NCBI GenBank assembly: GCA_046757965.1
Contig: JBHHZI010000001.1
Span: 25,112 to 89,111, forward strand
From: Acidobacteriota bacterium
GTDB taxonomy: Bacteria; Acidobacteriota; Polarisedimenticolia; SMYD01
Direction of reading: 5' to 3'
DNA length: 64,000 bases
Shown here: piece after piece, positions 1 through 61,440 of the stretch
Position numbering within the stretch: the first letter of the stretch is position 1
How the letters are laid out: the number at the start of each line of letters is the position of its first letter
Translations under genes and position numbers: made by a program
Notes under the pieces: model-generated
What the model was told of the DNA's origin: nothing
Database searches by the model: none
The model's input: the letters and a program-made list of their open reading frames with translations, nothing else

Positions 1-1173
1 GACCACTACACCGTGGTGGTTCTGGGCTGCCTCACGTGACCGCCTTTTCTGGGTAACGTCCCCGGTCTGGAGACGGTCGAGAGAGATTACGCCCCGAAGG
101 GTGTGCAGTTCTTCTACATCTACAAGGCCCTGGCCCATCCCGAGTACAACGACTACGTGACGCCGTTCACGCTCGATGAACGCCTGATGCATGTGCACGA
201 GGCGAAGCGAACACTCGGCTCGAAGATCCCGTGGCTCTGCGACGGCATGTCCAACGACGTGAAGCATTCACTCGGCAATGCCCCCAATGCCGAGTTCGTC
301 GTGGGACCGGATGGCCGGATCGCGCGCCGGCGACTGTGGAGCAACCCCTCGGAACTGCGCAAGGATCTCGAGGCCCTGGTCGGTAAGGTCGAACATCCCA
401 CGCGCGTGGAAGACCTCGATATGCCCGCTCCTCCCCCCCGGGAGGGTGTGGCCACCGGCATCGTACCCGGCGTCGAGGTGCCCGGCCGGATGCGCGCCCT
501 GAAGATCGAGCCGGTCATCAAGGACGACGGCGACCCGTTCTATGTGAAGCTGCGCGCCGAGGCGGATGAATCGTTCCTCGAGAAGGGCACCGGCAAGCTG
601 TTCCTGGGCTTCCGTCTCGATCCCCTCTACCACGTCCACTGGAACAACCGGGCCGACCCGCTCGAGTTCACGGTCAAGGCGGCCAGCAAGGTGACCGTCT
701 CACCCAGCCAGGGTCGGGCGCCCGTGGTGGAGGCGGCAGCCGACGCGGACCCACGGGAGTTCCTGATCGACGTCAGCGCCGACGAGCGGGACCGGCCCCT
801 CGATCTGAGCGTCCGGTATTTCGCCTGTGACGACGCCAATACCTTCTGTGTCCCGGTCACCCAGAACTACCGGATCGATCTCGAGACGGATCCCGACGGT
901 GGAGCCGTGATGTCCCGGCTGGGCGGTGGGGGAGCTCGCAGCCGCGAGGAACTGATCGCCCGCATCAAGGAGTGGGATGCCGACGGTGACGGGAAGATCG
1001 TCGCGACGGAGGTCCCGGGACCGATGCGAGGGCGGTTCGATTCCATGGACGCCAACAGCGATGGTGCTCTCGACGGCGACGAGATCGGAGCGATGGCGGA
1101 TCGGATGCTCAAGATGATGGGAGGTCGCCGAGGGCGACCCCGGCCGACCGCCGCCGCCTCGGGCACCCCGTGA
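1..1173 (+). CDS. Thioredoxin-fold (redoxin/AhpC-TSA/TlpA-like) protein with C-terminal EF-hand pair, 5'-partial. The frame is open from nt 1 through an in-frame TGA at 37-39, giving a candidate selenocysteine in a C-L-T-U motif.
   Basis: Frame 1 reads DHYTVVVLGCLT-TGA-PPFLGNVPGLETVERDYAPKGVQFFYIY. The residues after the TGA match the post-CxxC region of TlpA/ResA/Prx (GVxhhhh strand, then IPWLCD ... AEFVVGPDGRIARR = PttfliDpdGkI motif). The ORF track only begins at GTG 103, which would leave a redoxin fold without an active site. Codons 1-36 have high GC3 in the same frame. C-terminal DADGDGKI and DANSDGALDGDE are EF-hand loops. Confidence 0.5.
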
Positions 1174-1471: not shown

Positions 1472-1957
1472 TCATCTCGCCACCGCCAGACACTCGATCT
1501 CCACCCGCGCGCCCAGGACCAGGCCATCGATCGCCACGGCCGCCCGGGCGGGCGGATTGGTGGGAAAGAAGGTCACATACACGTCGTTCATCGCCGACCA
1601 CTCGTCGATGTCGGCCAGGAACACGGTGCACCGGACGATGCGGGCCATGGAGGACCCGTGTCGCGTCACGACGTCGCGGATGTTCGCCAGCGCCTGACGC
1701 GTCTCCCCCTGGATACCACCCGCTGCCAACTCGCGCGTCCCCGGCAGCGTGCCGATCTTGCCGGACAGATACAGCATCCGTCCGACGCGCACCGCCTCCG
1801 AGAGTCGCGGCGAGGGACCGGAAGGACCGGGCAGGTACTCGATCTCCTCCGGCGTGCCGGCCGCCCGGATCCCGCCGGCCATCGCACCCACGAGCAGCAA
1901 GGTGCCCGCCGTGCTCTTCCCGATCTTTACCCACCGTGGTCGTGCTCTTCCCGTCAT
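1472..1957 (-). CDS. RidA/YjgF/UK114 family reactive-intermediate deaminase; may carry an N-terminal signal peptide
   Basis: ORF product contains the hallmark RidA core LYLSGKIG ... CTVFLADIDEW ... AAR, and the length is typical; TGA stop. Confidence 0.85.
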   Translation of the reverse strand: MTGRARPRWVKIGKSTAGTLLLVGAMAGGIRAAGTPEEIEYLPGPSGPSPRLSEAVRVGRMLYLSGKIGTLPGTRELAAGGIQGETRQALANIRDVVTRHGSSMARIVRCTVFLADIDEWSAMNDVYVTFFPTNPPARAAVAIDGLVLGARVEIECLAVAR

Positions 1958-2161
1958 CGTGTGCCTCCCGTCTCATCGAGTCCAGCAGATGGTGTGGCTC
2001 ATCTCGGTGCAGCTTCCAGCCGCCTCGCACAAGACGGTAGGAGATCTCGGGTCGCGTTGACACAGGGAGCTGGTCAAGGCCACTTCCCCATGCCTGTTCG
2101 ACGGCCGGCCATGCCGGTCGCCGGACGCCCGCGCCCCGCACGACCCGACCTCACATGCGAA

Positions 2162-2188
2162 GAGGCCGGCGCTGTCGGCGCCGGCCTC
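2162..2188 (-). terminator. GC-rich perfect inverted repeat (11-bp stem, 5-nt loop); possible terminator downstream of the small sigma-54-dependent ORF
   Basis: The sequence is gaggccggcgc-tgtcg-gcgccggcctc, a perfect palindromic stem. On the minus strand it is followed by cTCTTCg. It sits between convergent/divergent minus-strand genes. There is no strong U-tract. Confidence 0.3.
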
Positions 2189-2281
2189 TCCGTCCCCGAT
2201 CCGGACCACCCTGGTGACCGCGTTCGTTGCCGGTCCGGATCTGTTTCTCAGGGAACGACGTGGATGTTGCCCTTCTCGGTC

Positions 2282-2425
2282 TTATCGGCAGCCGGTGCAG
2301 ATGAGCGTGTGTCCGCGACTTCCGCTGTCGGTGCTTCGCAGACCTTCGATCCGATTGGAACTCCAGAGAGAGGTGGATGCAACGAACATGGCCAACGCGA
2401 TCAGACTTGCTCTCAGAAAACTCAT
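2282..2425 (-). CDS. Small hypothetical peptide (47 aa, MSFLRASLIALAMFVASTSLWSSNRIEGLRSTDSGSRGHTLICTGCR) with a hydrophobic N-terminus and a C-terminal CxxC
   Basis: Strong SD aaaaGGAGtcgagATG. A candidate sigma-54 promoter lies 45-55 nt upstream. TAA stop. Codon usage and GC are lower than in neighbouring genes (agt, ttt, aga codons). The peptide is too short for homology inference. Confidence 0.4.
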   Translation of the reverse strand: MSFLRASLIALAMFVASTSLWSSNRIEGLRSTDSGSRGHTLICTGCR

Positions 2426-2479
2426 CTCGACTCCTTTTCTGCGCCCCCGAGGCGCTCTCGACATTCACCCCGGGACTAC

Positions 2480-2495
2480 GCAAGGGGAATGCCAG
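2480..2495 (-). promoter_or_regulatory. Candidate sigma-54 (RpoN) -24/-12 promoter
   Basis: The minus strand reads TGGCATTCCCCTTGCG, with GG and GC in exact -24/-12 spacing (TGGCAC-N5-TTGC consensus). It lies about 50 nt upstream of the small ORF at 2282-2425 and directly downstream of the sigma-54 activator gene. Confidence 0.5.
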
Positions 2496-2743
2496 CGTGG
2501 AGGGATCGCCGTCCTGCCGGGCGGTGGCCGGCCGGAAGACGCGCGGATCCGGTCGCTATCGCCCAGGAACGGCTGTTGACGATGTTCGAGGGTCATCCGA
2601 CCCGAGAGCGCAGACCGAGGGGGTCGGCATCGGCGCGGGAAGCGATCCGGATATCTGCAGGTACCGATCGGACACGCGGGCAACCGAAAGAGCGACCCCG
2701 GAGGAGACGTGGAGCGCGACGGGCACCCGGGAGGGCGCCATGC

Positions 2744-4588
2744 TCACCGGGCGGTGCCTGACCTGCCGCCGCGCCGGGCGCTTCCCCGCGATCCCCGCAG
2801 GTTCTCGGCCCAGCGGAGTGTGTTCCCAAGGTGCCGGCGGTCATCCGCCAGCAGGTCGGCGATCGATTCGCGGGAGATCGACAGCAGGCGCTTCACGAGG
2901 CTGGCGGCGTCCGACGTGCGCATCGATCGGGTACCGAGAAGCATCCGGACGGCCGTCGTCGGTTTCGGCTCGCCCGACGCGATGGCACTCGCGGCGAGAG
3001 CGGCGTCGAGCTGGCAGGCGATGAAGCGCGCATAGGCCGCCTGCACCTCGCCGAGCCGCCCGAGCCAGCGGTCCTTGTCGGCGATCTCGAATCTCACGGC
3101 ACCCAGGGCGGCGAGGGCATCGTCGAGGGTCGCGCCGGGCTCCGTCACTTCCTCCGGACGCTCCTGCCCCATGCCGTCGACACTCCCCTCGCCGACGGCG
3201 GACACCTCGACCGGCCGGTCGCCTGCGGGCAGGTTGCCCGCTCTCTCCGCGGGACGCCCCCGCGTCGCGCTCGTCGCGGTCGGCGGCAGGACCGACGGGA
3301 GGTGTTCCGGCGACAGGTAGCGAATACCGCGATAGCTGGACACTGCCTGGAGAACGGCGTGTTCGAGTTCCCGCACGTTGCCGGGCCAGGGGCTGGACAT
3401 CATCAATTCCATCGCCTCCGGGGAGATCTCACGCCGTTCAGCCGCGAGTCGTCTCTCGTGCCGGCGGACCAGATACTCCACGAGCAACGGGATGTCCTCC
3501 CGGCGGTCGCGGAGCGGGGGCAGCACCACAGGATTGGCGGCATTCGCGCGCTGCAGGAGGTCGCTGCGGAACCCACGCTCGAGCATCTCGAATCGATTCG
3601 TCGCCATCACCACCTGCAGGTCGAGCTTGCGCACGCTTCCATCGCCGATGCGCTGCGCTTCGCGGGTCCCGGTGTCCAGGAGTCGCATCAGCCGGTCCTG
3701 CACGCCGGCGGGAATATCACCGAATTCGTCGAAGAACAGGGTGCCCCCGTCGGCCATCTCCGCGGCGCCCGGGCGATCCCGGGCAGCTCCGGTGAAGGCC
3801 CCCCGCACATATCCGAACAGGTCCGCCGAGAACATGTCCTCGTTGGCATGGACAAACAGCTTGCAGAATTTGCCGGAACGCCTGGATGACCTGTGGATAT
3901 AGGTCGCGAGCAGTTCCTTCCCCGTGCCGGTCTCCCCGAGCACCAGGATGTTCGCGTTGCCGATGCGGGCGGCACGTCGGGCGGATCTCAAGGCGGCCAG
4001 CAGGGGCACGGAATGTCCGACGATGCCCTCGCCGACGAGATAGGCGTTCTCGAGGAGGAGGTCCCGCAACCGTTTCCGGTCGAGTTGCTGCTTGTCGACG
4101 AATGCGAACACACCATGGCGCGCGAAGCGACTCTCGATGTGCTCGCGCTCCATGGCCGACAGGATCACGACCGGAATCTCGGCCAGATCCGGCTCCTTGC
4201 GGATGCGGTCGAGGATCGTCAGTCCGAAGTAGTGTGCGGGGTCCCGGTCCGTCGACTCTCCCTGGGCATCCCCTGTGAGAGGATCGACCGGACCGGTCTG
4301 GAAGTGCATGTCCAGAAGCACCATGGCCCAGCGCGGCCACTTCTGCCAGCCGGCGCGAAGAAGCTCGATGACCCCGTCGACATCGTTGTCGATGCGCCGA
4401 TCGGTCTGGACCTGACCGCTGTGGAGGATCGCTTCCGCCACGGGTTGACCGACCTCCGCCGTCGCCACGTCTCCCGTCACATCCCGGATCCCGAGCCGCG
4501 CGCAGAACATCTCCCGATCCCGATTGCGGGCCCACGATCCGCGCCCGTAGACATCGTCGATGATCAGCAGTCTCGGCAGGTCGCTCAT
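2744..4588 (-). CDS. Sigma-54-dependent transcriptional activator (bacterial enhancer-binding protein, bEBP) with an N-terminal receiver domain
   Basis: Shows LLIIDD and a VLLDMHF receiver aspartate, Walker A GETGTGKE, the GAFTGA sigma-54 contact motif, and WPGNVRELE. The long C-terminal region has no obvious Fis-type HTH. TGA stop. Confidence 0.9.
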   Translation of the reverse strand: MSDLPRLLIIDDVYGRGSWARNRDREMFCARLGIRDVTGDVATAEVGQPVAEAILHSGQVQTDRRIDNDVDGVIELLRAGWQKWPRWAMVLLDMHFQTGPVDPLTGDAQGESTDRDPAHYFGLTILDRIRKEPDLAEIPVVILSAMEREHIESRFARHGVFAFVDKQQLDRKRLRDLLLENAYLVGEGIVGHSVPLLAALRSARRAARIGNANILVLGETGTGKELLATYIHRSSRRSGKFCKLFVHANEDMFSADLFGYVRGAFTGAARDRPGAAEMADGGTLFFDEFGDIPAGVQDRLMRLLDTGTREAQRIGDGSVRKLDLQVVMATNRFEMLERGFRSDLLQRANAANPVVLPPLRDRREDIPLLVEYLVRRHERRLAAERREISPEAMELMMSSPWPGNVRELEHAVLQAVSSYRGIRYLSPEHLPSVLPPTATSATRGRPAERAGNLPAGDRPVEVSAVGEGSVDGMGQERPEEVTEPGATLDDALAALGAVRFEIADKDRWLGRLGEVQAAYARFIACQLDAALAASAIASGEPKPTTAVRMLLGTRSMRTSDAASLVKRLLSISRESIADLLADDRRHLGNTLRWAENLRGSRGSARRGGRSGTAR

Positions 4589-5175
4589 ACGATCAGGATC
4601 TCGTGGGGCATCCTCGAGAGGCTGTCTCCGAGGTGGTGGCAGCCTCGCCTCAGGTTCTCGAACCGGTGCGCAAGCTGCCTCAGGCGCGAGACGTCGTCTG
4701 CCGGTTCCGCCGCCAGGCGCTCCTTGATGCGCCAGTAGGCCTCATCGGCCTCGATCAATGCCTGCGCCGCCGCGTCCACGCGCTCCGAGATCGGGTAGCG
4801 AGCCGCCCACAGATCATGGAGCAGGGTTCCCAGCCAGTGCCGGGTGGTCCGGGCCAGAAGACAGAGCGGCGCCTGGGTCACGAAGCACCGGGGCGACATC
4901 TCCTGGACGAACGACCAGATGAGATCACCGGCCTGTCTCGACCGCGCCTCCCACGCAGGGAAGTCGTCTCGAACGAACTCCAGGAGCCGTTCCGGATCCG
5001 ATGACGGCACGGCCAGCAGCGCCAGAAAGCCGTCCAGCCGGTTGAGATACCGGTTCTTCAGCCAGTCATGGTTGAACCGGCTGCGCCGTTGCTGCCAGTC
5101 CTCCATCGGGCTCGGGTCCACGACGACCTCGTCTACCTGACGCCGGAGCCGGTGGCGACTCCGGACGCCTGGCAT
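4585..5175 (-). CDS. Hypothetical protein; its stop overlaps the start of the sigma-54 activator (ATGA)
   Basis: ORF with a 4-nt ATGA overlap onto the downstream bEBP gene. No recognizable motif. The true start may be the internal Met (about 5106). Confidence 0.5.
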   Translation of the reverse strand: MPGVRSRHRLRRQVDEVVVDPSPMEDWQQRRSRFNHDWLKNRYLNRLDGFLALLAVPSSDPERLLEFVRDDFPAWEARSRQAGDLIWSFVQEMSPRCFVTQAPLCLLARTTRHWLGTLLHDLWAARYPISERVDAAAQALIEADEAYWRIKERLAAEPADDVSRLRQLAHRFENLRRGCHHLGDSLSRMPHEILIV

Positions 5176-5307
5176 GCATCCTGCTCCTGTTACAGGTCAA
5201 CCGTCGAAGGCACCGCGATACCCGCTCGGGCGGGCCGTCGCGACCTTCCCGGGTGCAACCTCGCAACGCATGGTATCAAGATTGATACCGGAAGTGGAGA
5301 ATCTGTC

Positions 5308-6519
5308 ATGTTCGTGCAACGTGGTTTTCAACAGGATTCCCGGACACACCATGAGGAGATCTATCTCGACAATGCCGCGACGACCGCGCTGGACCCCCGG
5401 GTCCTGGAGGCGATGGCGCCCTATCTGGGCAGCAGGTGCGGCGATCCATCGGGCGCTCACGCCCCCGGACGGCGTGCCCGGCAGGTCGTCGAGCGGGGAC
5501 GGGTGACCGTCGCCAGGCATCTTCATTGCGCCACCGCGGAGGTCGTGTTCACCAGCGGCGGCACTGAATCGAACAACCTGGCACTGATCGGCAGCGCGCG
5601 CCTGCTCAAGCGCCGCGGCCGTCATCTGGTCGTGTCCTCCATCGAACATCCATCCGTGCTCCGGGCAGCCGCCTACCTCGAGACCCAGGGCTTCTCCGTG
5701 ACGTGCGCCGACGCCGACAGCCAGGGCCGCGTGGGTGTGGACGCGGTGCGACACGCCCTCCGCCCGGACACCGTGCTGGTCTCGGTGATGCTCGCCAGCC
5801 ACGTCACCGGCATCGTGCAACCGGTACCGGAGATCGCCCGCCTGGTCCACGCGCACGAGGCGCTCCTTCATACCGATGCCGTCCAGGCGCTGGGCAAGAC
5901 GACGGTCGACGTCCGGGCGCTCGGTGCGGATCTGGTCTCCCTCTCCGCCCACAAGATGCACGGTCCGCAGGGCATCGGCGGCCTGTATGTGCGAGCAGGT
6001 GCCGTCATCCAGCCGCGCCAGTTCGGTGACGGTCAGGAGCGCGGGCTGCGAGGCGGGACGGAGAACATCGCAGGCATCCTCGGCTTCGTGCGGGCGCTGG
6101 ATCTCTGCGGTCCCGGCCGGGATCGTGACCGCATGGGCCGACTGCGGGACATGCTCCAGGACGAGATCACGTCCCGGATCGATGCCGTCATCGTTCATGG
6201 CAGGGAGGTCGCACGGCTGTCATCGATCCTCGCGGTGACCATCCCGGACGTGAACGGTGAGGCGCTCCATCGCGGCCTGGCGGCGCGCGGTCTGGCGGTC
6301 TCATCCGGCGAACCAGGGGCGGCCGGCCGGCGGGCCATGGTGCGGGCCGTCGGCTCCCATCCCGAACCCATCGCCAGCACCATCCGTTTCTCCCTGTCAC
6401 GACGGACCACCCCCGAGGAGATCCATGCCGCGGCGGCCATCGTGGGCGACGTCGTCGCGCGCCTCCATCGTCCAGCAACCGCATCTCCGGCGCGCAACGT
6501 CGTGATCGGATCCGGCTGA
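5308..6519 (+). CDS. Cysteine desulfurase (IscS/NifS family, class V aminotransferase)
   Basis: N-terminal IYLDNAATT, TSGGTESNN, and SAHKMHGPQGIGGLY (PLP-lysine region). Start chosen at ATG 5308 with GGAG 6 nt upstream. The ORF track extends further 5', but that stretch is non-homologous. Confidence 0.9.
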   Translation: MFVQRGFQQDSRTHHEEIYLDNAATTALDPRVLEAMAPYLGSRCGDPSGAHAPGRRARQVVERGRVTVARHLHCATAEVVFTSGGTESNNLALIGSARLLKRRGRHLVVSSIEHPSVLRAAAYLETQGFSVTCADADSQGRVGVDAVRHALRPDTVLVSVMLASHVTGIVQPVPEIARLVHAHEALLHTDAVQALGKTTVDVRALGADLVSLSAHKMHGPQGIGGLYVRAGAVIQPRQFGDGQERGLRGGTENIAGILGFVRALDLCGPGRDRDRMGRLRDMLQDEITSRIDAVIVHGREVARLSSILAVTIPDVNGEALHRGLAARGLAVSSGEPGAAGRRAMVRAVGSHPEPIASTIRFSLSRRTTPEEIHAAAAIVGDVVARLHRPATASPARNVVIGSG

Positions 6520-6579: not shown

Positions 6580-8589
6580 ATGATGGGCGGTATCTCCTGC
6601 CTGTACTCCGGCGGGGCGGTCCGGACCGCCGCCGGCGTCCAGCAAAGGCCGGGCGTGACCGTGACCAGAGGTTTTCGCAAGAACATCGAGGATCTGCTCG
6701 AGGAATGGCGTCCGCCCGGCGGCATGGCCGCCTTGCTTCTCGAGCATCCAACCGCGGGAGTCTACTTCCCGCTGGCGGTCCAGCCAGCCGCCGAGAACAC
6801 CGACTATTACTCGATGCCGGTGCGATTTCGCGATGGCTGCGACACCAGCCTGCAGCTCGATGAGACTTCTTCGCCGGAACGGCTCGCGTTTCGCGGCCGG
6901 CTCGAGTTGACACGGCCCGATCTGCGATTGCCGGTGAGGCAGGAACTGGTGCCGCTTCACCAGGATGGGGACGGCGGGCTGAAGGTTCTCCTCCTGCGCT
7001 CGTCACCGGGGACGATGCCGGACATGGAGCCGCGAAACCTGAACACCCTGAAGAATCTGGTTCCCCTGACCTGTCTGAACTGGGTGGAACAGGCGCAGAG
7101 ATCGATCGAGATCCCGGAGTTCTCGAGCTTCGAGGAGCTCGCGCAGGACCTGGTCAAGCGGCTCAGCGACGTGGAGCAGGACCCCCCCTATTTCCCCATC
7201 CTGCATGCCGAGGTGACGCCGGACGCTGAGGCTCTCGGCGCCCGTTTCTCCAGCGCCAACCTGCTGAGCTGGAACTGTTACCTCCTCGACGATCAGCGGA
7301 GCATGCCGGCCTACATCCCGCAGATGCCCACCGTGATGGGGGAAAAGAAGATTCACGAGTGGTGGGAGGATGTCACACGGCGGGCCGACGCCTCGAGCAT
7401 GACCGAATCGATCCGGAAGGCCGCCGCCAAGACCATCGATCATGTCCGGCTGATCGGCCGATGCGACCATGATGGCGTGGCGTGGTGGGCGTTTGCCCGC
7501 CACAACAAGGATCGCCGGGAGATGACAGGGCTGCTGTGTGAATGGTCCGAGGGGGAATCGATCCTCTCGGCCGCCGAGGCCTGGAGGGACGTCGACCCGA
7601 TCACGCCCGGTGACCTCGTGCGCCGGGCGCTGGCCGTGCGATCGGATGAAGATGACGTCCTGGTGACGATGTGGCTGGTCAGCGACACGGGCCAGGGCAT
7701 CAATATCGGGTTCAAGGCGGGCAACCGCATCGAGGTTCTCGATCACGCCGAGATGGGCGGCGCGGATCAGGTGGAGATCACGGAGTTCGTTCCGTTCTGT
7801 GTGCGGCTGTCCCCGTTGCCGCTGGTCGACAGGCAGGTCATCGAGGACCGGGTCCGGCCGGTCCTTGCCAGCGCAGCGCGCGCGGCACGACGCATCGACG
7901 GGTCGGGCCTGATCGAGAGCGCCTTCGAGCCGGTTCGCAGGGAGCTGCACGAGGGCTCATGGCATGACGCCTACCCGGGCAGTGGCCTGTTCGTGGACCG
8001 ATTTCATGACGTGGCCGACTGGACCGACGAGGACGTGAAGCGATGCCATGAACGGATGGTCGTGCTTCTCGACGGATTGCTGACCGCCTGGACCGGCAAC
8101 GCGAACCCGCTGAGCCGCAACCGTTGCGAGACACGCTTCGACTGCTGGCACATTCGCGCCCTCAAGGCTCTGGCTCATGACCGTCTGCACTCCAGCCTGG
8201 TGATGGCGGTTCTCTCCGGACCGGTGTCGGACGCGTCGTACCTGCTGGCCGACCGGGAGATATGCCCCGGCGGCAACGTACGCTGGTCAGACCTCCTGGC
8301 GGCGCTGACGACGGTCACGACCGAGGGCAATCGCTTCCGGCTGAAGCAATGGCACCACGGCGCAAGATGCACGCTGATCCTGCGGTTCTCCGGCCAGCTC
8401 AACCCCCAGGGTGTCACCGCCGCACTGACCGGAGAGGGCGCGCAAGAACGACAGGGCAGCTTCACGCGTGCCTGTGAAACCCTGCGTCGCGCGGCGCGAC
8501 GGTTCGGCGTGGAGATCGATCACGACGGAGACGAAGACGAACGATGGAGCCTCGTCGTCGTTCTGGCCGAGAGCGAGCTTGCCTGCTAA
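6580..8589 (+). CDS. Large uncharacterized protein (669 aa) immediately downstream of the cysteine desulfurase
   Basis: Long ORF with high GC3. GAGGAG lies just upstream of ATGATG. No motif I can name. TAA stop. Confidence 0.6.
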   Translation: MMGGISCLYSGGAVRTAAGVQQRPGVTVTRGFRKNIEDLLEEWRPPGGMAALLLEHPTAGVYFPLAVQPAAENTDYYSMPVRFRDGCDTSLQLDETSSPERLAFRGRLELTRPDLRLPVRQELVPLHQDGDGGLKVLLLRSSPGTMPDMEPRNLNTLKNLVPLTCLNWVEQAQRSIEIPEFSSFEELAQDLVKRLSDVEQDPPYFPILHAEVTPDAEALGARFSSANLLSWNCYLLDDQRSMPAYIPQMPTVMGEKKIHEWWEDVTRRADASSMTESIRKAAAKTIDHVRLIGRCDHDGVAWWAFARHNKDRREMTGLLCEWSEGESILSAAEAWRDVDPITPGDLVRRALAVRSDEDDVLVTMWLVSDTGQGINIGFKAGNRIEVLDHAEMGGADQVEITEFVPFCVRLSPLPLVDRQVIEDRVRPVLASAARAARRIDGSGLIESAFEPVRRELHEGSWHDAYPGSGLFVDRFHDVADWTDEDVKRCHERMVVLLDGLLTAWTGNANPLSRNRCETRFDCWHIRALKALAHDRLHSSLVMAVLSGPVSDASYLLADREICPGGNVRWSDLLAALTTVTTEGNRFRLKQWHHGARCTLILRFSGQLNPQGVTAALTGEGAQERQGSFTRACETLRRAARRFGVEIDHDGDEDERWSLVVVLAESELAC

Positions 8590-8670
8590 GAGTCGAACGC
8601 ACGGGCCATGCCGCGGCTCCGGCCACGGCGGCGCGGTCGCCGGACCATGCGCTCGCGGGACCGCCACGGG

Positions 8671-9501
8671 ATGAGTGCCTCGAGCTGGTCGCTTTACCTG
8701 TTCGACCCCGAGGACCGGGCCTACCGCAGGCCCTGGGCGTCGATGCTGCCGGCTCCGTTTCACGAGGTCACCATCGTGGATTCTTTCTTCCAGAGGAGCG
8801 GGGGCAGGGCTCGCGACGGTGTCGTCGTCGTCCACGCCTCGCGCCTGCCTGACGAGAAGCGACGCGGCGATCTGGTCAGCAACGCCAGACAGATGAATCT
8901 TCACCTGGTTCTCATCTCTGGTGGGCATCAGTCAGAGCCGGCGCGTGACAACTGGGTCTATTTCCGCCGCCGCCCGGTTCGCATGCGCGACATCGACGAG
9001 GAGTTTGTCGACTGCTTCGCCCGCTTCTGGCACCATCTTCGGTCCACCGATGAGTTCCGCTTCGAGCTTCTCGAACCGGCGCGAGACATGGTCCGGGTGC
9101 TGGTCGTGCTCTGCCAGGGCTATCTTCTCGCCCACGTGCGGCGCGACCCGCTGCGCCTCGAACTGCCGGGGGAGTCTCACGCGGTGTGTGACCAGGGGCT
9201 CGCAGCGTTGAACCGTCTCGGGCTCGACACGGCCCTGGCGACCCCCCCGGCGCCGGATAGCGTCTCCGAGCTGCTCGAGGAGGAGATGGGAGAGCTCGTG
9301 GACTCCGCCGACTGGTGGTCACCGGTCGATGTGCCGCGGCTTCGCCACGAGCTGGCGACTCTCGACATGAACGATGTGAACGTCCGGCGTCTTGTCGCCG
9401 GAATCGACGCGGAACTCTCCGTTGCTCCGGCCGTGGTGGTCGCGGCGTACTGCGTGCTCGAACAACACCTGCGCGCGAGTCTCCGGCCGCAGAGGGCCTG
9501 A
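8671..9501 (+). CDS. Uncharacterized protein (about 276 aa) in the same apparent operon
   Basis: ORF in the same orientation 80 nt after the preceding gene. Start ambiguous between 8608, 8647 and 8671. No recognizable motif. Confidence 0.5.
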   Translation: MSASSWSLYLFDPEDRAYRRPWASMLPAPFHEVTIVDSFFQRSGGRARDGVVVVHASRLPDEKRRGDLVSNARQMNLHLVLISGGHQSEPARDNWVYFRRRPVRMRDIDEEFVDCFARFWHHLRSTDEFRFELLEPARDMVRVLVVLCQGYLLAHVRRDPLRLELPGESHAVCDQGLAALNRLGLDTALATPPAPDSVSELLEEEMGELVDSADWWSPVDVPRLRHELATLDMNDVNVRRLVAGIDAELSVAPAVVVAAYCVLEQHLRASLRPQRA

Positions 9502-57754: not shown

Positions 57755-57806
57755 CACACCTCTCGACGAATGTGGGGCCCGTCCCTCCCATCGGGCCCCG
57801 TCTGTT

Positions 57807-58199
57807 TCAGGATACCAGTTGGGACGATGTTGCCGCATTGTTCCACGCGATCTCCATCCCCGCGCGGTGAACAGAGCGACCGAAGAGGCCGCGAATCAGT
57901 CGTTCCGAGCGAATCGGTCGCAGATCCGGGCGTGGCGCCCAGAATCGAGAGATGATCGGCTTGATGGTCGTTGGCCCGTCATCGCCGCCACCATTGCCGG
58001 GAACCACGCAGTTGCCACTGAGATTGCAACGACCGAAAAGCTTCGAACTGTGACACGAACTGGCGCCACTACCCTCCGTGGCGGAGCAAACGCGACTTGC
58101 CGAACAGGTCACGCAAGCGCGGGGTGCCGCAGGGATACCGGCGGCGAGCATCACAACCGCTGAGAGACCGAGAACAAACGTGAGACGTTTCGAGTTCAT
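57807..58199 (-). CDS. Small secreted cysteine-rich protein (130 aa; signal peptide, then 6 Cys within about 35 aa)
   Basis: GGAAGGAG SD before ATG. Signal peptide MNSKRLTFVLGLSAVVMLAAGIPAAP. CVTCSASRVCS ... CHSSKLFGRCNLSGNC. Confidence 0.5.
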   Translation of the reverse strand: MNSKRLTFVLGLSAVVMLAAGIPAAPRACVTCSASRVCSATEGSGASSCHSSKLFGRCNLSGNCVVPGNGGGDDGPTTIKPIISRFWAPRPDLRPIRSERLIRGLFGRSVHRAGMEIAWNNAATSSQLVS

Positions 58200-58866
58200 G
58201 AAGCTCCTTCCCTTTCCGCACAGCCCGATGTCGAGATGAGACGCCAGGCGTGGGCGGTGAATGGCGCGGAGACGGCGCTGGTCACGCTCTTTCTCCGCGT
58301 ACGGTTGATGAAATATCGCCGGTGGTAGGCGACGGTTTCCTTGGAACGCAGCATGCCGATGAGACAACTCCGGACAGGCGTGGTCAGCCAACCATCCAGG
58401 AGCCAGGGCCACAGGTGGCGATACGACGCTGGCGGAGACGTTCATCATTTCACCGGTTTCTTCCCCACGACAGGTTCGACCCGGAACCTTGCCGGCAGAG
58501 ATTGGTGGTCACGGCGGAGCAAGAGGCAAATTGTGTGCCAGCTCTCCGCTTTCCCCCGGATCCATGCAGACCACCATCGAACAGCGTACCGGAGCGCAGG
58601 GAAACGGCGACGGCGGCCAAGAAAGTCGGATCCATGCACCGATTCAACCAGCCTGGAGGTCGTCTCATTCGCAGATAGAGACGGGCCGCTGCGCGCGCTC
58701 TAGGACGACTGTTCCATCTCGCACAGTGGCTGTTCTGTGTTGTCCTGCAGTGGGACATCCGGCTCTCGAGACCACGGTCCGGCGTTCATGTCCACCCGTG
58801 CCGCCCGACCTCGCCCCGCGGCATGCCGTGATACACTGCCCAAACAACGAACGAGGAGACCTGCCT

Positions 58867-59103
58867 GTGACCGAGCCGACCGTTGCCGAGAAGTACCCTG
58901 CTGTCCTGGAGCTCGAACCCGGCACTTACCACTGGTGCCGCTGCGGGCGCTCCGCCGGCCAGCCGTACTGCGACGGGTCGCATGCCGGCACGGCGTTCAC
59001 ACCGCTCACCTTCACGATCGAGGAGAAGAAGACCGTGGCCCTGTGCCAGTGCAAGGTCACCGGCAATGCTCCGTTCTGCGACGGCGCTCACAAGCGTCTC
59101 TGA
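58867..59103 (+). CDS. CDGSH iron-sulfur domain protein (two CDGSH-type motifs)
   Basis: CRCGRSAGQPYCDGSH and CQCKVTGNAPFCDGAH. GAGGAG upstream of the GTG start. The 79-aa size is typical. Confidence 0.8.
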   Translation: MTEPTVAEKYPAVLELEPGTYHWCRCGRSAGQPYCDGSHAGTAFTPLTFTIEEKKTVALCQCKVTGNAPFCDGAHKRL

Positions 59104-59400: not shown

Positions 59401-61440
59401 GTGAAGGCACTTCTGGTCTATCCTGAACACCCCGATCAGACCTACTGGAGCTTCAGCCGCTCGCTCCCCTACATCGGATGCCGTAGCGCCATGCCTCCGC
59501 TGGGGCTCATCACGGTGGCGGCCATGCTACCGGACCACTGGCAGCTTCGCCTCATCGACATGAACACCACGATTCTGCGCGACGCGGACCTGCTGTGGGC
59601 CGACGTCGTTCTCACCTCGACCATGGTGGTTCAGGCGGCCTCGCTCCACGCGGTCATCGACCGATGCCATCGGCTCGACATTCCGGTGGTGGCGGGCGGT
59701 CCGTACCCCAGCGGCTCCCCCGGACAGGTTCACCAGGCGGACCACATCTTCGTCGGAGAGGCCGAGGACGAGATCGCCGCGTTCGCGGCAGCGCTGGAGT
59801 CGGGAACGGCCCCGAAGATTCACCGCGCCTCCGGCCTGCCCGCCATCGGCCACGCTCCGGTGCCCCGGTTCGACCTCCTGGATCTCGACGCATATGCTTC
59901 CATGGCCATCCAGCACTCGCGGGGCTGCCCGTTCGGATGCGAGTTCTGCGACATCTGGAAGCTGTACGGCCGACGCTCCCGGGTCAAGGAACCGTCCCAG
60001 ATGGCCGCCGAGCTGGACGCACTCCACGACGCGGGCTGGCGCGGCTCGGTCTTCTTCGTCGACGATAACTTCATCGGCAACCCGCATGTGGCTCGCCGCT
60101 CGCTGGCGACTCTCGAGTCCTGGCAGGCGGAGCACGGTTTTCCCTTCCAGTTCTACACCGAGGCATCTGTGAATCTCGGTACTGACGACGCGCTCATGGG
60201 CGCCATGCGTGATGCCGGCTTCAACTTCGTCTTTCTCGGCATCGAATCACCATCGAGCGAGAGCCTGGCCGGCGCCAACAAGCCGCTGAACGCGAGGCTC
60301 GATCTCCTCGATGTGGTCCGCCGCATCCAGGCGCACGGCCTCGAGGTCTCCGGGGGCTTCATTGTCGGCTTCGACGAGGACACGGAGGACATCTTCGACC
60401 GCCAGATCGCCTTCATCCGGGAAGCCGCCATCCCGATGGCCATGGTGGGCATTCTCACCGCCATCGAGGGCACGGACCTCTACGACCGGCTGAGGGCGGA
60501 GGGCCGTCTGCTGCACGAATCGCCCGGCGACAATACCCACCGCTTCGAGGCGAACTTCATCCCTCGCCTGCCCGCCGATCAGCTCGCCGCCGGTTACCGG
60601 CGCGTGATGAACACGCTCTACGACCCGACACTGAGGGATTACTTCTCCCGCTGCCGGCGTCTGTTCGACCGGCTGGGGCCCAACCCCCGCTTCACCCGGC
60701 GCATCGTGTCGCGGGAGATCCGCGCCCTGCTCCGCTCTCTCGCCACGATCGTAACCCGCCGGTACGGCCGGGAGTACCTTCGCTTTCTCCTCTGGTGCCT
60801 GCGGCGCCACCCGGCCCGCTTTCCGGAGGCGGTGCGCCTCGCCATCCAGGGCTTCCATCTCGAGGCGATCACGCGGGAAGCGCTCGCCTGTGACGATCTA
60901 CGCAAGGTGTCCGTGAAGCTCACCGAGCGGTTCGCGGTGCGCCTGGGCCGGATCGCACGCGGCGCACGGAGACCATCCATCACTGCCGCCGCGTATGTCC
61001 GCACGGTGATGATCGAGCGGGACCGAGTGCTGCGCAATCTGAGGCGGCGCCTGCGCAGCCTGGCTCCCGACGCCCGCGCTGCCGCCGCGTTGATCTACGG
61101 GGAGACCCTCACCAGGCTCGACGCCCTGTGCTCCGAGCACCTCCCCACAGCTTCGGGTGTGTTCCACGCCGGCACCGAGCGACTCGCCGCCCTGCGCACG
61201 GCACTGCAGAATGATGTCGATCGAGTTCGCTTGCGATCTCTCGCGCTCTACGCCAGGGCCGGTGACGGCGTGGCAGAGATCCGTCGAGAGATACGGGCCG
61301 TCCATGGCATGCGCCGCGCGATCCTGCGTCGGGCGAGGCGGCGCGTGCAGGCTCTGCCCGCCGAGTACCGTGTTCTGGGCAGTGTCGAGCTGCAGGCCCT
61401 GCGCCGCACACTCGCCGGCGTGGTCCCCGTCACCACCTGA
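59401..61440 (+). CDS. B12-binding-domain radical SAM protein with a DUF4070-like C-terminal domain
   Basis: N-terminal cobalamin-binding Rossmann-like region. CPFGCEFC (CxxxCxxC) radical SAM cluster motif. Long C-terminal helical domain. Confidence 0.85.
   Translation: MKALLVYPEHPDQTYWSFSRSLPYIGCRSAMPPLGLITVAAMLPDHWQLRLIDMNTTILRDADLLWADVVLTSTMVVQAASLHAVIDRCHRLDIPVVAGGPYPSGSPGQVHQADHIFVGEAEDEIAAFAAALESGTAPKIHRASGLPAIGHAPVPRFDLLDLDAYASMAIQHSRGCPFGCEFCDIWKLYGRRSRVKEPSQMAAELDALHDAGWRGSVFFVDDNFIGNPHVARRSLATLESWQAEHGFPFQFYTEASVNLGTDDALMGAMRDAGFNFVFLGIESPSSESLAGANKPLNARLDLLDVVRRIQAHGLEVSGGFIVGFDEDTEDIFDRQIAFIREAAIPMAMVGILTAIEGTDLYDRLRAEGRLLHESPGDNTHRFEANFIPRLPADQLAAGYRRVMNTLYDPTLRDYFSRCRRLFDRLGPNPRFTRRIVSREIRALLRSLATIVTRRYGREYLRFLLWCLRRHPARFPEAVRLAIQGFHLEAITREALACDDLRKVSVKLTERFAVRLGRIARGARRPSITAAAYVRTVMIERDRVLRNLRRRLRSLAPDARAAAALIYGETLTRLDALCSEHLPTASGVFHAGTERLAALRTALQNDVDRVRLRSLALYARAGDGVAEIRREIRAVHGMRRAILRRARRRVQALPAEYRVLGSVELQALRRTLAGVVPVTT

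Follow-up and report, generated by a model that had tools for sequence, protein, structure and literature searches.

The predicted sigma-54 unit and its surroundings

The window analysed here is a stretch of 64,000 nucleotides from an Acidobacteriota genome (contig JBHHZI010000001.1). Near its start, on the minus strand, lie the gene of a probable NtrC-class enhancer-binding protein (EBP), hereafter the activator, and, directly downstream of it, a small open reading frame (ORF) of 47 codons behind a predicted sigma-54 promoter, P_pep; a divergent operon follows a second sigma-54-type site, P_div, on the opposite strand (Table 1). The initial annotation had read the small ORF as a peptide gene driven by a sigma-54 promoter beside an activator, and this is supported by the presence of the same promoter-ORF-terminator unit at all loci of the activator subfamily. 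We put the probability that the locus is a genuine sigma-54-dependent unit for a very small, probably exported protein, set in a self-contained regulatory module, at roughly 0.72, judging from the sequence and its conservation.

Table 1. Features of the predicted module, with positions in the window
Feature	Position	Strand	Basis
Terminator-like GC-rich hairpin, GAGAGGCCGGCGC-CGACA-GCGCCGGCCTCT, 14-bp stem	2161..2190	(-)	predicted fold
Window-specific hairpin in the 3' untranslated region (UTR), GATCCGGACC ... GGTCCGGATC	2197..2243	(-)	direct reading
ORF of 47 codons plus TAA	2282..2425	(-)	sequence, orthologous ORFs, selection
Shine-Dalgarno (SD) sequence AAGGAG, 5 nt before the ATG	2431..2436	(-)	direct reading
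GC hairpin of the 5'UTR, GCGCCU-CGG-GGGCGC, just 5' of the SD	2441..2455	(-)	predicted transcript fold
P_pep, predicted sigma-54 (-24/-12) core, TGGCATTCCCCTTGC	2480..2494	(-)	exact core and orthologous loci
Upstream regulatory region, activator stop to P_pep	2495..2743	(-)	conserved blocks, 12-unit alignment
Probable activator, 614-aa NtrC-class EBP	2744..4588	(-)	Pfam, AF2 model, Foldseek
Partner protein, at most 196 aa, stop overlapping the activator start (ATGA)	4585..5175	(-)	direct reading
P_div, sigma-54-type site into the divergent operon, TGGCATGCATCCTGCT	5170..5185	(+)	scan and conservation
Palindrome in the divergent-operon leader, GGTATCAAGATTGATACC	5272..5289	(+)	GGGTATCCGATGTGATACCC at the same position in the L002 clade
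NifS/IscS/DndA-like cysteine desulfurase, first gene of the divergent operon	5308..6519	(+)	Aminotran_5, 246 bits
669-aa protein with GAF-like/PAS-like sensor folds	6580..8589	(+)	fold comparison
297-aa protein, last conserved gene of the divergent operon	8608..9501	(+)	orthologues in L001 and L002

The promoter sequence TGGCATTCCCCTTGCG (2494..2479, minus strand, in the context CCACGC-TGGCATTCCCCTTGCG-TAGTCC) carries GG at 2493-2492 and GC at 2481-2480 in canonical spacing. The general sigma-54 consensus is TGGCAC-N5-TTGCT (PMC12316311); written as TGGCAT-TCCCC-TTGCG, P_pep matches 9 of its 11 consensus positions, and the orthologous promoters, such as TGGCATCCGTCTTGCT and TGGCACACCCCTTGCT, match 10-11. 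The site is intergenic and faces the small ORF, with 54 nt between the end of the motif and the ATG, in agreement with the initial placement of a -24/-12-spaced motif about 50 nt 5' of the ORF. Transcription is predicted to start near 2468. A motif scan, which had been proposed as a check, gave a divided answer: the strict core TGGCA-N6-TTGC occurs twice in the window, above the 0.27 ± 0.47 occurrences found in shuffled sequence, whereas a loose consensus (at least 9 of 11 positions) occurs 17 times, close to the 13.7 ± 2.8 expected. Since the loose count is near expectation in a genome of 67% GC, the P_pep motif by itself is only suggestive, and it is the intergenic location, the orientation and the recurrence at the corresponding place of all 12 orthologous loci that lift it above chance.

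The small ORF begins with ATG at 2425-2423 and is translated as MSFLRASLIALAMFVASTSLWSSNRIEGLRSTDSGSRGHTLICTGCR. The strong AAGGAG Shine-Dalgarno sequence and the TAA stop of the initial annotation were found again, at 2436-2431 and 2284-2282. A 60-aa form starting at an in-frame upstream ATG (2464) was rejected, as that codon has no SD and is not conserved. From the anatomy of the unit, a monocistronic mRNA of ∼310 nt can be inferred that would run from about 2468 to the terminator at 2190-2161.

Conservation of the cassette

Related loci were fetched through close homologues of the activator and with a probe from its subfamily-specific C-terminal domain. In all 12 loci of the activator subfamily (60-65% identity) TGGCA-N6-TTGC lies just past the activator stop codon, and wherever the contig continues, a small ORF follows that ends in two hydrophobic residues, C-x-x-C-X and a stop. 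Six parts are conserved in an alignment of the units: ∼200 nt upstream of the promoter, the promoter itself (CTGGCATCCGYCTTGCTCTA), the 5'UTR hairpin (GGCGC...GGCGC, at the same place in all loci), the SD with the start codon (GGAAAAGGAGAGGAC-ATG), the ORF and the terminator, whose stem GAGAGGCCGG/CCGGCCTCTC is kept throughout. The full cassette is present in every subfamily locus that is long enough and comes with four subtypes of the peptide; it is found in a narrow group of uncultured Acidobacteriota. The conservation of the small ORF next to orthologous activators, which had been named as a check on its reality, is thus borne out, and the ORF is moreover under purifying selection, as described below.

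Some genomes carry two or three peptide units in tandem, each with its own sigma-54 promoter and upstream region. Two complete units lie 647 bp apart in locus L018, two units also occur in L019, and in L002 the upstream region is repeated at the tail of the locus; L016 and L018 belong to one metagenome-assembled genome (MAG). Assembly breaks or scaffold gaps tend to fall inside these arrays (L018, 81-1000; L019, 2094-3100), L016 ends inside a peptide gene and L019 has a run of Ns within one copy. Since assemblies break within the arrays, the copy number per genome is probably underestimated.

Two observations concern the 3' end of the unit. In the window, GATCCGGACC and GGTCCGGATC form a perfect 10-bp inverted repeat within a 3'UTR segment of ∼50 nt that is absent from the other loci. 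The terminator stem GAGAGGCCGG/CCGGCCTCTC is better conserved across clades than the peptide coding sequence, which points to a possible further function besides termination, for instance in stabilising the RNA or binding a protein.

Coding status of the small ORF

The initial annotation had pointed to the low GC content and deviant codon usage of the ORF relative to neighbouring genes, and both are confirmed: its GC content is 0.56 and its GC content at third codon positions (GC3) is 0.62, around the 1st percentile of 47-codon windows from real genes (0.83 ± 0.065). Its coding log-odds are 0.065 per codon as against 0.385 for real genes, although the frame is the best of the six. This odd composition and the weak coding log-odds made a non-coding RNA a serious alternative, so that comparative evidence had to decide. 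Low GC3 turned out to be shared by most members of the family (0.56-0.67, versus 0.79-0.83 in the adjacent activator genes) and, being a family trait, is no evidence of foreign origin for the copy in the window.

Nei-Gojobori ratios of nonsynonymous to synonymous substitution rates (dN/dS) are 0.18-0.30 for pairs at intermediate divergence; between the small ORFs of L002 and L003, for example, the proportions of differing synonymous and nonsynonymous sites (pS and pN) are 0.46 and 0.12. All indels among the small ORFs are multiples of three. Low dN/dS together with frame-preserving indels indicates that the ORF evolves as a protein and hence is translated. Within the clade whose peptides begin with MAYLRIS, purifying selection acts on either half of the peptide (pN/pS 0.32 and 0.46). 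In this clade the 25 residues that follow the signal-like segment hardly vary, and variation clusters in the ∼12 residues before the CxxC; diversifying selection on this last segment was tested for and none was found (pN/pS 0.46).

The gene has gone unannotated, as neither the 47-aa nor the 60-aa form of the peptide occurs in a collection of 15 billion proteins, and gene finders did not call the ORF on an identical Logan contig.

A family of small peptides ending in CxxC

A search with the single 47-aa sequence gave no match. The family was recovered only with a profile built from nine peptides taken from the loci, which found 17 clusters among 5.8 billion proteins, all of 58-64 aa and all annotated as hypothetical; the named ones all come from Acidobacteria MAGs. 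Three subtypes occur in the database, MAYLRIS...(I/V)CTGC(K/N), MNFVRIS...FTC(S/N)ACG and MDTIRFS...FVCV(I/S/V)C(Q/N), and the peptide in the window is a fourth, shorter and more divergent. None of the subtypes matches a family in Pfam or NCBIfam.

All members share one layout. The N-terminus follows the pattern M-x-[FYT]-[LVI]-R-x-S, in which position 5 is basic; an apolar run of 17-18 residues comes next and ends in small residues. After it comes a hydrophilic, Gly/Ser-rich tail of 25-40 residues, closed by an invariant C-x-x-C-X in which both cysteines, at -5 and -2, are present in every member. Candidate signal-peptidase sites are SVA|G, AVS|G and GIA|G, and VAS|T in the window peptide. 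Such an N-terminal layout is that of a Sec signal peptide, and the peptide is probably exported. The hydrophobic leader-like N-terminus and the C-terminal CTGC of the initial annotation are therefore real features of the pre-peptide, which ends in ...LICTGCR after its apolar run. Of the fates suggested for it at the time, secretion is best supported, by the basic residue at position 5 and the apolar run, while a small membrane regulator or a toxin-like peptide is less so.

Several known classes of small protein were tried and rejected. The peptide does not end in a CAAX box, as its cysteines lie at -5 and -2 in every member and not four residues from the C-terminus. It is no type IV pilin, having neither a Gly before the apolar run nor a Glu, and no lipoprotein, having no lipobox and no cysteines other than the two C-terminal ones. 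A tripartite Cys sorting signal (MYXO-, JDVT-, Synerg- and CGP-CTERM, as defined in the Haft preprint) does not fit either, since the peptide ends one residue past the second cysteine, with no transmembrane segment or Arg tail behind the Cys motif. No cognate CPBP protease of the myxosortase type is present in the window. In the MAYLRIS clade, which is the largest, an Rce1-like/CPBP intramembrane protease gene directly follows the peptide gene or genes, and these proteases score 20-23 bits against cut-offs of 75-130 (22.6 bits against the MrtJ cut-off of 75, and also below the MrtS and Mrt-core cut-offs). Beyond the CPBP gene, this clade has genes for a convergent M61-like PDZ peptidase, an ABC-2 exporter and a DUF4126 protein; locus L013 keeps the PDZ peptidase, and in L001 genes of the PDZ and ABC kinds flank the module on its other side. 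In the window there are no CPBP, PDZ or ABC genes beside the peptide gene, and two other clades have no adjacent CPBP gene. No maturase of a recognisable family (radical SAM, YcaO, LanM and others) for ribosomally synthesized and post-translationally modified peptides (RiPPs) was found near any locus.

Whole-window searches at the gathering thresholds of Rfam gave no match, a permissive Rfam scan of 2100-2780 returned only sub-threshold noise, and the predicted folding of the transcript is on a par with that of shuffled sequence (z = -0.65).

The activator, its partner and the divergent operon

The initial annotation had placed a sigma-54 activator directly upstream, at 2744-4588, and the gene there indeed encodes a protein with a sigma-54 interaction AAA+ domain (PF00158, 131 bits, cut-off 20.2) and AAA_lid_14, in which the GAFTGA motif, the loop that contacts sigma-54, is intact. 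The protein is 100% identical to one annotated in an Acidobacteriota MAG. It consists of a receiver-like domain (residues 1-181), the AAA+ domain with GAFTGA (190-441), a disordered linker (435-486) and a C-terminal domain of seven helices (488-599). In the AF2 model (predicted local distance difference test, pLDDT, 80) the receiver part has an alpha/beta fold; the top Foldseek matches, NtrC1, NtrX, NtrC4, LuxO and FleQ, span receiver and AAA+ parts, and the AAA+ fold superposes on FlrC, FleQ, NtrC1 and PspF at a TM (template modelling) score of 0.88. The Pfam Response_reg model matches weakly, at 17 bits against a cut-off of 30.2. D11, D12, D93 and S144 are invariant in the receiver-like domain, which has the full Asp/Asp/Asp/Ser/Lys set and an insertion of 27 residues after D93. 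Among ∼80 full-length relatives of the activator none has PF02954, and the compact seven-helix C-terminal domain could, judging from the model, bind DNA.

We consider it likely that the activator drives P_pep, on the grounds of adjacency, of strict co-occurrence, of the joint loss of GAFTGA and promoter in distant relatives, and of its being the only EBP in the window. EBP genes often adjoin their targets (PMC2725144), and this tendency adds to an assignment that we infer. GAFTGA is intact in all close homologues, whereas 5 of 6 aligned distant relatives (36-46% identity) have degenerate forms (GAFDGA, GAFHGA, GAHDGA, GAFAGA, GTATGV); the remaining one, P0065 at locus L006, keeps the motif. 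At the distant loci L005, L006 and L007 neither a sigma-54-like site beside the gene nor a small CxxC ORF was found. It is possible, to judge by their sequences, that the distant relatives are AAA+ machines that no longer work with sigma-54. They keep the partner but have mostly lost GAFTGA and lack the sigma-54 promoters, and may exemplify AAA+ EBPs on the way out of sigma-54 control.

The partner protein is encoded directly upstream of the activator, and homologues of it were found by tblastn directly upstream of every activator relative, the distant ones included. The ATGA overlap suggests translational coupling of the two genes, and the true start of the 196-aa partner is probably internal. 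At L005-L007 the partner gene is kept immediately upstream while the other neighbours are large proteins without Pfam families (∼1000, 430 and 260 aa); at L005 it is joined to the C-terminal end of a 440-aa protein and lies beside a second EBP paralogue.

On the opposite strand, the P_div pattern has one match in the window versus 0.05 expected, and TGGCAYG-NN-TCCTGCT occurs at the same spot in L001, L002, L003, L016 and L017. A conserved P_div beside P_pep means that the module has at least two predicted sigma-54 targets. A palindrome GGTATC-N5-6-GATACC, possibly an operator or an RNA hairpin, is also seen in the leaders of L002, L003, L016 and L017. The cysteine desulfurase (343 bits with the NifS model, below the NifS cut-off) occupies the first divergent position in this genome only; the orthologous loci have an unrelated protein of 238-315 aa there. 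The family of the 669-aa protein is very rare: a set of 1.84 billion cluster representatives contains 17 members at E<=1e-3. The folds of the protein are GAF-like or Roadblock-like, and its helical C-terminal third is modelled with low confidence. The 297-aa protein has orthologues of 41-45% identity in L001 and L002. By tblastn, the 669-aa and 297-aa genes accompany only the peptide-bearing activator subfamily. The 196-aa, 297-aa and 669-aa proteins had no sequence match in Pfam, NCBIfam, PADLOC or PDB; a defence-system reading found no support, there being no PADLOC match for the partner proteins.

Comparison with known systems

The regulatory principle of this module is classical. In Geobacter sulfurreducens, pilA lies directly downstream of the EBP gene pilR and has an RpoN-type promoter (PMC2725144), and the present target shares this placement after the EBP gene, a putative RpoN-type promoter of its own and a short product with a hydrophobic N-terminus that would be exported. 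Unlike PilA, however, the peptide has no class III prepilin leader, no Gly-Phe/Met site and no Glu at +5; neither pilus assembly genes nor a gene for a PilS-type kinase lie nearby, and the C-terminal domain of the activator is different. ZraR drives the divergent sigma-54 promoters of zraP and zraSR, and ZraP is a small periplasmic metal-binding protein that feeds back on the system (PMC4987338). The module shares with ZraSR-ZraP of E. coli and Salmonella the layout of one EBP with two adjacent sigma-54 promoters, here predicted. It differs in that the peptide has no sequence similarity to ZraP, is three to four times smaller and may occur in tandem, that there is no sensor kinase, and that P_div faces an operon of family-less cytoplasmic proteins rather than regulator genes.

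Small RNAs (sRNAs) encoded next to EBP genes are another precedent: Qrr beside luxO, CrcZ after cbrB and GlmY with glrR are a known architecture of sigma-54-dependent sRNA genes, and Qrr genes occur in multiple copies, as the peptide units do. The likeness extends to an EBP, a sigma-54 promoter, a short transcript and a strong terminator, but here there is a conserved SD and an ORF under purifying selection, and no match in Rfam.

Two further comparisons bear on the peptide itself. Class II bacteriocin and pheromone loci have precursors with a double-glycine leader, a typical peptide-sensing two-component regulation, Abi/CPBP immunity genes and ABC transporters. Here, as there, small precursors, sometimes in tandem, lie beside CPBP and ABC-2 genes under a dedicated regulator; the leader, in contrast, resembles the Sec type, control would be by sigma-54 and an EBP, and the host is a diderm of the Acidobacteriota. 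In systems of a CPBP protease and a Cys-containing client, adjacency logic has linked JDVT-CTERM with the protease MrtJ (Haft preprint), and the CPBP gene of the MAYLRIS clade likewise adjoins a single small client with invariant C-terminal cysteines. The peptide nevertheless differs from such clients in having no transmembrane segment with an Arg-rich tail and in the spacing of its cysteines (-5/-2, as opposed to -4 for the CAAX cysteine), the CPBP scores are far under the Mrt cut-offs, and the window and two clades have no adjacent CPBP gene.

Four elements are new: the micropeptide family, previously neither annotated nor described; the activator subfamily, with its coupled partner and a C-terminal domain of a new kind; the rare GAF-like protein behind P_div; and the amplification of the peptide unit in tandem.

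A model for the module and its alternatives

According to the model we favour, sigma-54 RNA polymerase would form a closed complex on TGGCAT-N5-TTGC at 2494-2480, for which the motif and its conservation are the observed part. The activator, whose NtrC-class domains are observed and whose specificity for this promoter is proposed, would open the complex by ATP hydrolysis through its GAFTGA loop. Its activity is probably controlled by way of the receiver, of the translationally coupled 196-aa partner or of the two together, and the signal may be supplied by the GAF-like 669-aa protein, the operon of which lies behind P_div at 5170-5185. The resulting monocistronic mRNA of ∼310 nt, from a start near 2468 to the terminator at 2190-2161, would be translated from its strong SD into the 47-aa pre-peptide, the coding status of which rests on purifying selection. 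The N-terminal 22-25 residues could act as a Sec signal peptide or as a membrane anchor, placing the tail, with its terminal hydrophobic-hydrophobic-Cys-x-x-Cys-X, outside the cytoplasm, where the cysteine pair might form a disulfide or bind metal. Our best guess is that the product is an extracytoplasmic peptide made in bursts or on demand (a signal, an antagonist or an envelope factor), and not a cytoplasmic regulator.

Several results count against this model. The window peptide is the most divergent member of its family, with 28-34% identity and a length ∼16 residues shorter, so that the case for its homology owes as much to position and flanking signals as to sequence, and its own coding statistics (GC3, log-odds) are weak. 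The Fis-type helix-turn-helix domain PF02954 was not found in the activator, and a profile of its C-terminal domain had no match in PDB and no similarity to known DNA-binding domains. No histidine kinase gene lies near this receiver-bearing protein, and no ORF with an RpoN box was found in the 64-kb window. Candidate enhancer elements are present in the upstream region at 2495-2743 (minus strand), with CCGATCGGTACC at 2671-2660 and CCGGATCCGCGC at 2552-2541, and the best cross-clade 12-mer, GCAGATCCGCAC, has 10 mismatches as against 14.4 ± 0.9 in shuffled sequence; but this 12-mer is not enriched within the window, repeat finding in the upstream regions gave no common enhancer element, and the upstream regions of P_pep and P_div share no k-mers beyond chance. 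An enhancer (upstream activating sequence, UAS) consensus was thus not definable by repeat, 12-mer or k-mer searches.

A refinement of the model that we regard as possible, if tentative, is that the peptide is a precursor similar to that of a bacteriocin, a pheromone or a RiPP, with a conserved leader and a C-terminal core that varies more. Maturation, export or neutralisation would then be the task of the CPBP protease, the M61/PDZ peptidase and the ABC-2 exporter of the MAYLRIS clade, and possibly of the proteins of the divergent operon, which P_div would co-regulate: the 669-aa and 297-aa proteins and the 238-315-aa protein or, in the window, the cysteine desulfurase. The presence of these three genes in that clade, with related PDZ and ABC genes near the L013 and L001 modules, agrees with such a role, as CPBP genes are known both downstream of bacteriocin genes and beside single clients with an invariant cysteine (Haft preprint). 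Tandem multi-copy arrays also fit, as does the contrast between the nearly invariant 25 residues after the signal-like segment and the variable ∼12 before the CxxC. On the other hand, those variable residues are under purifying selection (pN/pS 0.46) and no diversifying selection was seen, a Sec-type hydrophobic N-terminus is unusual for a RiPP leader, the 669-aa protein resembles a sensor and not an enzyme, no recognisable RiPP maturase lies near any locus, and the CPBP, PDZ and ABC genes are absent from the window and not universal.

With this in mind, one may speculate, at somewhat long odds, on a sigma-54-gated ribosomal peptide system with tandem-amplifiable precursors, in which the peptide is exported and its CxxC is modified or processed by divergent-operon proteins. 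According to this speculation, the CPBP protease of one clade would act on the C-terminal Cys motif as a bacterial analogue of CAAX processing, and these uncultured Acidobacteriota would make in this way a signal, an antagonist or a molecule that binds metal.

It is rather unlikely that the peptide is a small envelope accessory protein that handles metal or redox chemistry through its terminal CxxC and feeds back on the module as ZraP does on ZraSR. Two invariant cysteines in every member would suit such a protein, as would the zraP/zraSR-like arrangement, where two sigma-54 promoters adjoin an EBP gene and one of the two serves a small exported protein. In the window, the divergent operon also begins with a cysteine desulfurase and a neighbouring 356-aa protein has weak DsbD_N and deiodinase-like matches, but the neighbour matches are all sub-threshold and not conserved in other loci. 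Neither ZraP nor CpxP nor any metal-binding family resembles the peptide, and tandem amplification is atypical of a feedback accessory protein.

If the N-terminus were not cleaved, the product could be a single-pass small membrane protein, either a regulator of a membrane partner or toxin-like, and the 17-18 apolar residues after Arg5 could span a membrane; the candidate signal-peptidase sites are plausible. We think this reading doubtful, as the apolar run would make a rather short membrane-spanning helix for stable insertion and, in all subtypes, ends in small residues in the manner of signal peptides. There is no sign of an antitoxin or an antisense element, and the conserved hydrophilic tail of 25-40 residues argues that the tail is the functional part.

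That the transcript is a sigma-54-dependent sRNA in which the ORF is incidental, or in a weaker version a dual-function RNA, is very improbable. The weak coding statistics of the window ORF speak for it, and so do the 5'UTR hairpin and especially the terminator, which are conserved at least as well as the ORF; but dN/dS is 0.2-0.3 with synonymous sites near saturation, all indels are in frame, and SD, ATG and amino-acid motifs are held across four subtypes whose DNA has diverged. The Rfam and folding results given above count against it as well. Finally, a chance promoter match beside a spurious ORF, which the near-expected number of relaxed matches and the silence of the gene finders might have suggested, is of negligible likelihood, given that every orthologous locus has the cassette in the same position and that purifying selection acts on the ORF.

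The favoured model thus concerns a conserved micropeptide gene that gene finders skipped and that was recovered through promoter logic and comparative genomics. The module would be a two-promoter sigma-54 regulon, as predicted, in a phylum whose sigma-54 biology is almost unexplored, made up of an activator with a novel putative DNA-binding domain, a coupled partner, a rare GAF-like protein and a peptide output. Should the peptide prove to be a signal, a bacteriocin or a metal binder, this would make it a new family marked by its unusual CxxC terminus and served, in one clade, by a CPBP protease of its own.

Other features of the window

Downstream of the peptide gene lies a gene for a RidA/YjgF-family protein (1472-1957, minus strand) that, unusually, has an N-terminal signal-like segment, followed by the convergent gene of the 356-aa protein (103-1173, plus strand), the weak matches of which also include EF-hand and, through the deiodinase-like one, a thioredoxin fold. 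Both neighbours, the RidA-like and the 356-aa protein, are not conserved in related loci.

The second exact sigma-54 core of the window, GCTGGCACACAATTTGCC, is at 58526-58540 on the minus strand (flanks 57800-58640) and has two direct copies of TGCATGGATCCG before it. Apart from the activator at 2744-4588, the window contains no EBP. About 330 nt downstream of this second core there is an SD with an ORF for a secreted Cys-rich protein of ∼130 aa (MNSKRLTFVLGLSAVVMLAAG...), and then a gene for a 1132-aa protein. Divergent from the core are a small ORF for a CDGSH-type iron-sulfur protein (58880-59103, plus strand) and a gene for a 679-aa radical SAM protein with a B12-binding domain (59401-61440, plus strand).

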